A DNA stretch of 64,000 nt, taken from assembly GCA_965249725.1 (NCBI GenBank), contig OZ252251.1:726324-790323 (forward strand). Direction: 5' to 3'. Source of the stretch: Longimicrobiales bacterium (GTDB lineage Bacteria > Gemmatimonadota > Gemmatimonadetes > Longimicrobiales > Gaopeijiaceae). The first letter of the stretch is position 1. Every line of letters begins with the position of its first letter. The position numbers and the translations under genes are program-made. The notes beneath the pieces are model-generated. The model searched no databases. It worked only from the letters and a program-made list of their open reading frames with translations, and was not told the origin of the DNA. This document shows positions 54,983-58,035 of this stretch, piece by piece.

Positions 54983-55483
54983 CTATTCGCCCCGCAGCAT
55001 TTCCGCGAGCCGCTCCACCCCCATACGAACGTTCGCCTCTGGCGGACCGAAAGAGAACCGGACCCACTTCTTGAGGTCCTTGTTCACCGACTTGATGCCA
55101 CCCGGATTCACGTCGAAGAACCGCCCCGGGACGGTCAGTACCTTCTTCTCAAGGGCGGCGCGGAAGAACTCGTCGGCGTCGTTGAAAGACTTTGGAAGGC
55201 CGCCGATGTCGGCCCAGACGTAGAACGTACCCGAGGGCTCGTGCTCGCACTCGATACCCATGGTGCGAAGCTCCTGGAGCATCAGGTCTCGCTTCCGTAG
55301 AAAGACGTTCCGTACGGCCTCGGTCTCCTGATCGGCCCGGCTCGGCTCGAGCGCCTTGATCGCCAAACGCTGAGCCGGGAGGCTCGGTCCGCCATCGATG
55401 GCGCTGGCGGCTCTGTCGATATTCTCGATGATGTCCGAGGGTCCGACCGCGTCTCGGAACGTCGGCTGCTGCTGCTTGGCCAA
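54983..55483 (-). pseudogene. class I/II PLP aminotransferase with large internal deletion
   Basis: Only the C-terminal part (GTFYVW, VPGRFF, VRFSFG) joined to an 11-aa N-terminus; PLP-lysine region absent. Confidence 0.75.
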
Positions 55484-55521: not shown

Positions 55522-57012
55522 TCAGGGCGAGTCCGCGGTTCGGAGCGGCCGAAAGGAGAGGGGGATCAGCGTCCAGAGCATCGATCCGAAGAACGCGAAG
55601 GCAATCGCCCCGGTAAGCGCGAACAGGACGCCTGACGAGGCCCCGAGCCATGCGGGTGGCACGTAGATCTCGTCGGGGGCGAGCCGCATGCGGGTCAGTC
55701 CGGTGACGACGCCGACCAAGTGCAGCCAAAACACCAGGAGAGCCACCCCGACGTTGAGCCCGATGACCGACCACCGCATGCCGGTGCAGTGGAGCGGGTC
55801 CGAGGCGACCTCACCCTCTCGGGCCCTCAGGTGCTCACCCACGATCCAGATCACGGCACCCAACAGGATCATCGTGTCGATCCCTATGGTGGCGCCCATG
55901 GCGTGTCCCGTGACTGCATACGTCCCGTGAATAATCGCGTTCAGCGGGGGAATGGAGATGAGCACCGCCGAACCGACGATGGCGACCGACCAGTATTTCG
56001 CCGCTGCGAAGCTGCCTCGGGTAGCGCAGAAGGGCCTGTCCTCCCTTGTACGCACCAGCCTCGACAGGTCGGAGACGGCCCGTACCAGGATGATGACCTC
56101 CATCATGCTCACCACGAAGGCGATCCACTTCACCAGCTCACGTTGGGGGAGATGATACGTGTGGTGCGCAAAATTGGTGAAGGAGTTCAGGAGGCCTACC
56201 GAGAAAAGAGCGTACGCGGTTCGCGAGTGCCCGTACTCGGCATCCCCCGAGATGCGCTCTCCGATGTAGATGACCGAGCCGTACACGAACAGGTTGTACG
56301 CCCCGACCATAGTGCCGGTCGCCTTCCACTGGACCCTCAGATCCTGGACCGGATCTTCCCACATCCCGGGGAGGAGGTAGGCATGCTGTTCAAGGAACGT
56401 GTACATGAAGAACACGGTCCCGACGCCCCACATGGTGACGTAAAGGGGACGATCCCAGAACCCCGGTCCAACGATCCGAAAGAAGTTCCAGACGTAGCAC
56501 AGCCACCCGCCGAGAATCAGAACCGAAAACACCGGATGGAATCCCACGTATTCCCGCCCCGAGCCGACGCCGGCCATGAGCGTGACGAGGATCCCGAGGC
56601 CCGCCGCCGCCCAGCAGAGCACCTGCACGCGCAACCGCCATCGGTCACCGTTGGAGGCCAGGCCTCCGTGGTCCATGAGGTAGCGGTGGACTACGGCCAT
56701 GCCGCCCAGGAAGATCCAAGCGGAGGCAAACGTCGTATGAACGGGACGCAGTTGCGTCAGGTCGAGGCCGACAGACTGGAAGGTGGGCGCCAGGGACGGA
56801 ACCGAATACAGCGCCCCGAGCAAACCTCCGACGAGGGTGATCGCGATCGCGATGAGCCCGCCGCGCACGAAGGTCAGTGTGGCGAACTGCCGAACGGGAT
56901 CGGCATCCTCGAAGGGGAAGATCCGCAGCTCGGTACCGTCCAAGGATCGCCCCACGACCGCGGGTCCCCCCATGGCCTCGCCGACTCCCGCCTCCTGGGT
57001 CGCCTGGCTCAT
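55522..57012 (-). CDS. heme-copper oxidase superfamily subunit I, NorB-like with non-canonical ligands
   Basis: About 12 TMs; RPVHT, GREY, AHHTY, SMME, HGTYAVTGHAM; ATGA overlap with the upstream cytochrome c. Confidence 0.85.
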   Translation of the reverse strand: MSQATQEAGVGEAMGGPAVVGRSLDGTELRIFPFEDADPVRQFATLTFVRGGLIAIAITLVGGLLGALYSVPSLAPTFQSVGLDLTQLRPVHTTFASAWIFLGGMAVVHRYLMDHGGLASNGDRWRLRVQVLCWAAAGLGILVTLMAGVGSGREYVGFHPVFSVLILGGWLCYVWNFFRIVGPGFWDRPLYVTMWGVGTVFFMYTFLEQHAYLLPGMWEDPVQDLRVQWKATGTMVGAYNLFVYGSVIYIGERISGDAEYGHSRTAYALFSVGLLNSFTNFAHHTYHLPQRELVKWIAFVVSMMEVIILVRAVSDLSRLVRTREDRPFCATRGSFAAAKYWSVAIVGSAVLISIPPLNAIIHGTYAVTGHAMGATIGIDTMILLGAVIWIVGEHLRAREGEVASDPLHCTGMRWSVIGLNVGVALLVFWLHLVGVVTGLTRMRLAPDEIYVPPAWLGASSGVLFALTGAIAFAFFGSMLWTLIPLSFRPLRTADSP

Positions 57013-57785
57013 CGAAACTCCCACCATGGCACCCGGCCCCAGTCGAGGGGTCCGGAGCCCGAGGACGCCCTGGTCAAGTCGGCCTGCAACTCTTCCCTGG
57101 TCTCACCCATCCATCTGAGAAACTCGACCACAGCGTCGCGCTCCAGCGACGAAAAGGCCGGAATCGGTGGAGGCATTCCCACCTCGGGGCGACCGGCGGT
57201 CAGAACCTGCTCGAGCTCCTCGAGAGAAAGGCGCCCCACGACCGTAGAGAGGTCAGGGGCGCCCACAGGAGAGCCGCTCAGAGGAAAGTGACAGCTGGTA
57301 CAGGGCCGCGCCTCGATGGCCGCATACCCGGCCGCGGCCTCAGCGGAGGCGGTACCGAGAGCATTCTCCACTACGCCGTCGAACAACCCCCACGGACCGC
57401 TCCCCTCGGGTGCGGAACCGAGGCGCAACTGACCCTGTCCCAGATCCGGCCGGTCCAACGCCTCCAGATACGCGGCCATGTCGGTGATCTGCTCCGGGGT
57501 GAAGTCGAACACAGGCATCTGGCCGCTGCCGACGGTCAGGAGAGACTCTAGCCGCGACCCCTCGATTCTGCTGGCGGCGTTGGTGAGGTCCGGACCCAGA
57601 AAACCGCCCTGCCCATACACCTGGTGACAGACCTGGCAGGCGTTGTCATGCCAAAGGGATCGACCGCGCAGGGCCTCCTCGGAAAGGGGGTCCTGACGTG
57701 TGTCCGTGTAGACGAGGGTGGTCTGGACCCCGAAGGCAGCCACCAGGCAGGCCAAAGCGGCCTTCTTGGCGGAAGCCCTAACCAT
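57009..57785 (-). CDS. membrane-anchored diheme cytochrome c, NorC-like
   Basis: N-terminal TM; CQVCH...GPDLTN...QMP; second CTSCH...GMPP. Confidence 0.85.
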   Translation of the reverse strand: MVRASAKKAALACLVAAFGVQTTLVYTDTRQDPLSEEALRGRSLWHDNACQVCHQVYGQGGFLGPDLTNAASRIEGSRLESLLTVGSGQMPVFDFTPEQITDMAAYLEALDRPDLGQGQLRLGSAPEGSGPWGLFDGVVENALGTASAEAAAGYAAIEARPCTSCHFPLSGSPVGAPDLSTVVGRLSLEELEQVLTAGRPEVGMPPPIPAFSSLERDAVVEFLRWMGETREELQADLTRASSGSGPLDWGRVPWWEFR

Positions 57786-58035
57786 ACGCCGCCATTTTCC
57801 TCCAAATGCAGTTGGGATTCCCGAAGGGGTTGTCGCACAAGACAGCAATTCTAAGGCGAATCCGGCTCTCACCCAAGTCCGTCCCTTCCCACCCAAGGCC
57901 GGTCTTGGTAAGCTGGTCGCAAGGGGCCGCCGGGGGGGGGCGCCGGGGGCGCCGCCGGGGGGGCGCCCGACATGGCCGGACCCTCGGCGTTCGTAACCCA
58001 TACCGGTCGAGTCCTTCAACAGACCTCTAGGTGCA

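Follow-up and report, generated by a model that had tools for sequence, protein, structure and literature searches.

The window, that is the whole 64,000-nucleotide stretch of DNA that was analysed, contains an intact two-gene operon at 55522-57785 on the minus strand, with both frames open (Table 1). The upstream gene encodes a diheme cytochrome c and the downstream gene a heme-copper subunit I, and the start of subunit I overlaps the cytochrome stop by ATGA, with GGAG just upstream. A preliminary description had read the locus as a NorC/NorB-like pair with a diheme, translationally coupled partner, and the overlap and the two CxxCH motifs agree with this; the open reading frames and all the subunit I motifs that it had named are also present (RPVHT with His92, GRE, HH, SxxE with Glu305, His362 and His370-Ala-Met372). 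The G+C content is 0.65 for the gene pair and 0.64 for the genome. Both genes are covered by contigs from four runs belonging to four studies, with no difference listed inside either.

Table 1. Features of the gene pair in the window, and broken or partial copies elsewhere
Feature	Positions	Strand	Remarks
Membrane-anchored diheme cytochrome c, 258 aa	57009..57785	-	N-terminal helix followed by a NorC-like domain 1 and a second class I c domain; PWWE(F/Y) tail conserved
Heme c motif 1, C50-H54, invariant distal Met90	57624..57638	-	
Heme c motif 2, C162-H166, invariant distal Met204	57288..57302	-	
NorB-like heme-copper subunit I, 496 aa	55522..57012	-	Pfam COX1, 72.6 bits; 12 long helices in model
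His92 (RPVHT), helix II low-spin heme ligand	56737..56739	-	By homology
GRE motif, G152-R-E154	56551..56559	-	Profile alignment
Remodelled helix VI, Q228-N240: invariant Lys230, Gly233 at metal-His position, FeB Glu absent, Asn240	56293..56331	-	
His283-His284, remaining non-heme metal ligands	56161..56166	-	By homology
Glu305 (SxxE)	56098..56100	-	Present in Lys subclade, lost in His/Asp subclade
His370-Ala-Met372: high-spin heme His and Met replacing second low-spin heme His	55897..55905	-	
Non-coding stretch upstream of pair, probable promoter and ribosome-binding region (predicted)	57786..57905	-	Conserved in closest relatives
Broken or partial copies, one related genus	G247:C1:4593647-4594455; G279:C3:693705-694829; G299:C15:89879-90076		

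In one related genus all three carriers have broken or partial copies (Table 1), which reflect either lineage-specific loss or assembly errors and could be taken to favour a decaying norCB pseudogene. That reading is refuted by conservation: both frames here are open, subunit I has a dN/dS of 0.07-0.14 and the cytochrome one of 0.14-0.25 (five pairs each), and the substitutions are family-wide rather than private to this genome, with Lys230 and Gly233 (QWK..G), HH, Glu305 and H-A-M all found in 80/80 GTDB loci. Subunit I and the cytochrome are coupled in 78 of these 80 loci, and the two misses are both at contig ends. The upstream heme c gene has two motifs in 129 of 139 loci and one motif in the other 10; a further 18 loci, mostly at contig ends, showed no upstream heme gene. 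In the distant members P0149, P0161, P0186, P0190 and P0194 (five of the seven long proteins scanned), subunit I carries between one and three cytochrome c domains fused to its C terminus.

The AlphaFold2 model of subunit I (114 sequences, pLDDT 92.2) has a NOR-like fold. Its best structural match is cNOR 4xyd_A (Z 39.5, rmsd 2.4 Å over 424 residues); other matches are cbb3 3mk7 (Z 37.7) and cNOR 3o0r_B (Z 37.4). Searching solved structures with the single subunit I sequence gave no match at E 0.01, and with the subunit I profile matched cNOR, cbb3 and qNOR. No NCBIfam family matched subunit I, and a Bacteroidota-type member of the family was without a match in the plasmid collection. The best solved-structure match of the cytochrome profile is NorC 3o0r_C (E 4.9e-13) and its second domain matches CcoP. 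In a tree of 37 rows, including 13 reference rows of which one is cbb3, the family forms one clade (100/99) that is sister to cNOR+qNOR (99/98), with cbb3 outside; support for the Lys subclade by itself is weak (74/30). No gNOR or nNOR sequence was among the reference rows.

The register of the active site was taken from HHalign alignments of the family profile with four plasmid cNORs (probability 99.9) and one cbb3 CcoN (99.2). In these, Gly233 aligns with the metal His of helix VI, Asn240 with the second Glu of that helix and Met372 with the second low-spin heme His, while the FeB Glu position holds no Glu but Gly237 or a one-residue gap. Four of the six cNOR His ligands are thus kept and Gly233 and Met372 replace the other two, which bears out the earlier claims that the helix VI His and Glu are lost and that H-A-M stands in place of H-x-H. 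With neither the full set of six His nor the FeB Glu, this is not a canonical NO reductase site, as had also been claimed. Of the NOR residues, Arg89, GRE, His283/His284, Glu305 (SxxE), His362 and His370 are retained, and Glu154 of GRE lies at the calcium-ligand position of cNOR. Ser277 lies opposite the helix VII Tyr of CcoN, which we take to be the cross-linked Tyr. We dropped a register that would align Thr232, which is Tyr in many Bacteroidota, with the helix VI His, because its column varies. The position of Met372 suggests that the low-spin heme is probably His/Met-ligated, as first proposed, and there is a precedent in nNOR (PMC11214002).

Residues were counted in 71 diverse Lys-subclade members taken from 114 aligned rows, with close relatives excluded and 17 His rows and two Gln rows kept separate. 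Position 230 is Lys in 70 members and Arg in one, and both Gly233 and a Gly or Ala at the FeB Glu position are present in 71/71. The corresponding figures are 69/69 covered members for Glu208, 70/70 for Asn240, 67/68 for Glu305 and 66/68 for Met372. The K..G pattern is found in 119/120 close matches and in 119/119 Bacteroidota-type matches. Lys230 sits one turn above the lost helix VI His, and on an ideal helix the face within 60 degrees comprises Lys230, Trp229, Gly233, Val236, Gly237, Asn240 and Tyr244.

There is a related subclade in which position 230 is His and position 233 is Asp in 46 of 51 members (QWH..D, helix VI). It has HHH on helix VII in 50/51 and the SxxE Glu in 0/51, it also has the His/Met heme (P0232 and relatives), and its named members are from Saprospirales, Opitutales, Parvularculaceae and Phycisphaerales. 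The helix VI His-x-x-Asp pair of this subclade resembles the ligand set of NOR moved by one turn. The strongest hint that Lys230 points towards the metal site is that its position can be occupied by His; judged from alignment and helical periodicity, Lys230 probably takes part in that site. The two-His metal site of the preliminary description is upheld in that His283 and His284 are kept, but it appears incomplete if Lys230 is a third participant. The contrast between Lys230 and His-Asp is open to direct mutagenesis.

The pair resembles cNOR (NorCB; 3O0R, 4XYD) in fold (rmsd 2.4-2.7 Å, 424 residues), gene order, the NorC-like, membrane-anchored partner upstream and the retained residues listed above. 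It differs at the site, where cNOR has six His ligands and the FeB Glu of HLWVEG and this family has Gly for the helix VI His, no FeB Glu, Asn for the second Glu, an invariant Lys and a His/Met low-spin heme. Elsewhere the partner is diheme, Phe replaces the Tyr of the NorC GAYF motif and norQ is absent. The absence of norQ, also claimed previously, was confirmed by a profile search of the genome, in which there was no CbbQ_C match; it is not decisive against cNOR because cNORs that lack NorQD exist (PMC12067857). Cbb3 CcoN/CcoP is similar in fold, in the helix VI QW...VG register and in having a multiheme c partner, but the His-Tyr cross-link and three CuB His of the C family are not all here: the cross-link Tyr and the helix VI CuB His are missing, and the family clusters with NORs. 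One metal His is replaced in gNOR (by Asp) and in NOD, and nNOR shares the His/Met low-spin heme; gNOR and nNOR are both thought to be compatible with NO reduction (PMC11214002). However, gNOR and nNOR are of B-family descent with a cupredoxin second subunit, whereas this protein has a cytochrome c partner, groups with cNOR+qNOR and belongs to neither. NOD is a single-subunit qNOR derivative without heme c, with His replaced by Asn and Glu by Gln, and the pair does not have these features either. The combination of Gly and Lys is found in none of gNOR, nNOR and NOD. Taken together, the data show a conserved, divergent enzyme that is not a canonical cNOR.

The gene pair very probably belongs to the family named "N2O red" (N2Ored) by Murali et al. 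(2024; PMC11214002), who relate it to cNOR and propose that it "might serve as" an N2O reductase insensitive to sulfide and acetylene. Their census lists 293 GTDB genomes, and N2Ored is present in 18 Gemmatimonadota rows among the first 30 of Dataset S6. The identity was reached by elimination, since the oxidase counts in three genomes fit the census rows only if this protein is N2Ored. SZUA-318, matched by name, has four COX1 genes (A-type, cbb3, eNOR-like and this family) and its census row reads A1 C1 eNOR1 N2Ored1. For two Palauibacter genomes the link to a row is inferred: JAAXHJ01 has two A-type genes and one of this family (row A2 N2Ored1), and SB0661_bin_40 has two and two (the sole Gemmatimonadota row with N2Ored 2). 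Consistent with this, the family branches with the C family, cNOR and qNOR and close to cNOR (in the tree with 13 reference rows, one of them cbb3), has no cross-link Tyr (Ser277), and shares with N2O red the taxa Longimicrobiales UBA6960, KS3-K002/Palauibacter, Planctomycetota and Bacteroidota; Bacteroidota-type members are named Flavipsychrobacter and Flavobacteriales, which are rich in N2Ored rows. None of the 11 N2Ored reference accessions was among the 20 clusters looked up. No feature was found that distinguishes the pair from N2O red, the available main text of PMC11214002 giving no description of the active site of the family.

The earlier label of an uncharacterised family is thus right in one respect, in that a literature search covering few subscription journals found no biochemical test of N2O red, but the family already had a name and this copy is one more member of it. 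The analysis adds Lys230 above the lost His, the His/Asp subclade and the co-occurrence tests; the description of the Lys/Gly/Met site and the subclade may already be in the SI Appendix or alignment of PMC11214002. With one Bacteroidota-type query the family comprises 2,844 clusters at E <= 1e-30. Its members are annotated as NorB or cbb3 in databases and so can inflate counts of denitrification genes or oxidases. In the available parts of the datasets, S8 gives one cNOR more than S6 for 6 of 12 Bacteroidota carriers, suggesting that the family is sometimes scored as cNOR.

The host genome is 95.8% complete; besides this NorB-like gene, its only heme-copper genes encode two A-type oxidases. 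We did not find cNOR, qNOR, eNOR, a flavodiiron protein or a globin in it, or nosZ, nirS, narG, napA or nrfA. It has nirK on another contig, next to an Rrf2-family regulator, so the claim that denitrification genes are absent holds for the neighbourhood of the pair but not for the genome. An Rrf2 regulator adjoins a nirK carrying a C-terminal cytochrome c at L188:7730-9759 (G000:C3), in a genome with no known NO reductase. The pair has no neighbours that are conserved across phyla, and none of 87 selected ORFs in its surroundings matched nor, nir, nos or norQ at E 1e-25.

Our best explanation, which we hold tentatively, is that the pair works as a stand-alone NO-scavenging reductase with NO as its substrate. 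Electrons from the periplasmic cytochrome c pool would travel by way of two His/Met c hemes to the His92/Met372 b heme, of higher potential than a bis-His heme, and on to the high-spin heme on His370. A metal (Fe or Cu) opposite this heme would be held by His283, His284 and Lys230 or water, with open space at Gly233/Gly237; Lys230, Glu305 and Asn240 would deliver protons, and two NO would be reduced to N2O. N-N coupling would then proceed with two of the four canonical FeB ligands missing. The sister relationship to cNOR+qNOR, the best structural match to cNOR, the NorC-like first domain of the partner and the retained Arg89, GRE, His362 and SxxE are all consistent with NO reduction, as are the NOR-like His-x-x-Asp pair of the His/Asp subclade and the presence of nirK, with no other NO sink found, in the host genome. 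The varied sites of gNOR and nNOR point the same way, the stand-alone occurrence recalls detoxifying qNOR, and Ser277 disfavours O2 reduction by the rule of Murali et al. that a missing cross-link Tyr argues against it (PMC11214002).

Against NO reduction, FeB has been described as essential to all NOR mechanisms (PMC12067857) and half of its four ligands are lost in this protein, and there is no association with nirK. In the family of the host (201 genomes; 43 carriers and 158 non-carriers) nirK is present in 13/43 carriers and 36/158 others (p 0.32, this and all other co-occurrence p values overstating the evidence because related genomes are not independent samples and most of the genomes are incomplete). 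In a Planctomycetota class (201 genomes; 48 carriers and 153 non-carriers) the figures are 6/48 and 11/153 (p 0.25), and 36 of 50 chosen carriers have neither nirK nor nirS. An association at genus level (12/15 versus 14/55) was discounted, since genera represented by more genomes are positive for both genes. Of the 49 genomes with nirK in the host's family, 4/13 carriers and 17/36 others have an eNOR-like gene, cNOR or qNOR (p 0.35), so the enzyme is not clearly a substitute for other NORs and the reading that it replaces them is unsupported. Many Bacteroidota hold the gene alongside cNOR or qNOR in the available part of Dataset S6. Within the host's family the eNOR-like gene is common where nirK is present (17/49 genomes; L189-L204, L218-L219), whereas qNOR is present in 1/201.

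We consider it unlikely that the pair is an N2O reductase that is independent of NosZ and has no copper cluster, a function suggested by Murali et al. N2O would bind between the high-spin heme and an open two-His metal, and Lys230 would act as the acid that protonates the leaving oxygen; a chemical parallel is the conserved Lys397 of NosZ, which has been proposed to protonate the oxygen of N2O (PMC13685413). A stand-alone module would suit non-denitrifying N2O consumers, no nosZ was found in the host genome, and four Chryseobacterium carriers in the available part of the census have napAB, nirK and qNOR without nosZ. Furthermore, nosZ is rarer in carriers within the host's family (2/43 versus 47/158, p 3e-4 by genome). 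This exclusion is, however, weak by genus (2/15 versus 21/55, p 0.12) and absent in the Planctomycetota class (5/48 versus 15/153, p 1.0), and the reading that the enzyme replaces nosZ was rejected as it applies to one family only and failed replication in the second phylum. N2O is also a poor heme ligand, which counts against its reduction here. Twelve Bacteroidota carriers, picked from the first part of S6 for also having cNOR or qNOR, include 11 with nirK and seven with nosZ. The N2O label itself comes from the physiology of Solitalea (Flexibacter) canadensis, for which Dataset S8 lists qNOR, nirK, nosD and nosZ in addition to N2Ored (PMC11214002); with an ordinary nosZ, its N2O reduction does not need N2Ored. 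We likewise doubt that the family is a second NosZ-independent biological N2O sink, invisible to nosZ surveys, in which Lys230 would be a general acid convergent on NosZ Lys397 and which would replace nosZ in marine and sponge Gemmatimonadota; if it did reduce N2O, a sink for a major greenhouse gas would have gone uncounted. As a stand-alone module, the pair tracks neither an NO source nor the absence of nosZ consistently.

It is improbable that the pair is a low-rate O2 scavenger or an oxidase that works without the cross-linked Tyr. In that case the fourth electron would come quickly from the extra c heme and a high-potential b heme, and His-His-Lys would hold Cu. Helix VI aligns without gaps to cbb3 (QW, V-G), the cbb3 structural score of the model is close to those of cNOR, the diheme partner and the fused tri-heme forms recall CcoP, the polar residues of the cbb3 channel are partly kept (Tyr249 and Ser263; 46/71 each), and no NorQ was found in the genome. 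Against this, there is no cross-link Tyr, the family clusters with NORs and not with cbb3, and carriers already own A-type and often cbb3 oxidases.

Outward electron flow is highly doubtful. The high-spin heme would oxidise a small substrate (NO to nitrite, or else hydroxylamine or sulfide), and the electrons would travel by way of the His/Met b heme to the c hemes. We know of no member of the heme-copper family that runs outward, and no neighbouring gene indicates such a pathway. There is no link to nir or nos genes, which would fit, and His/Met ligation is expected to lift the potential of the low-spin heme by about 150 mV; nNOR, with the same heme, is nevertheless read as a reductase (PMC11214002). 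Just as doubtful is a complex without a non-heme metal that serves as a gas-binding or electron-relay module and not as a catalyst. Two of the four FeB ligands are gone, and there are no metal-insertion genes in the genome or beside the relatives. However, His283, His284, Lys230, Glu208, Asn240 and Glu305 are near-invariant across proteins that are 25-50% identical, which suggests a maintained catalytic pocket, and there is no fused or linked signalling domain. An enzyme like NO dismutase, producing N2 and O2, can hardly be correct: NOD has likewise lost one metal His and a catalytic Glu (PMC3413370), but it is derived from qNOR with Asn and Gln as the substitutions and with electron entry lost, and the reading fits poorly because electron input through cytochrome c is here retained and extended.

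Finally, some features of the surroundings were noted. A PLP-dependent decarboxylase adjoins the pair in L055, L056, L057, L140, L142, L143 and L167 (several Planctomycetota and more distant loci), possibly as chance synteny, and Rrf2 regulators lie near the pair in two distant loci (L052:7179-7718 and L173:2993-3469). In the window, the downstream aminotransferase gene (54983-55483, minus strand) has an in-frame deletion of 759 nt, corresponding to residues 12-264 of its L001 orthologue (419 aa); no second copy was found in the genome and the read contigs show the same form. After guaA there is a hairpin-like stretch rich in G/C homopolymers (57925-57965), where other runs differ at two bases and by single-base gaps.
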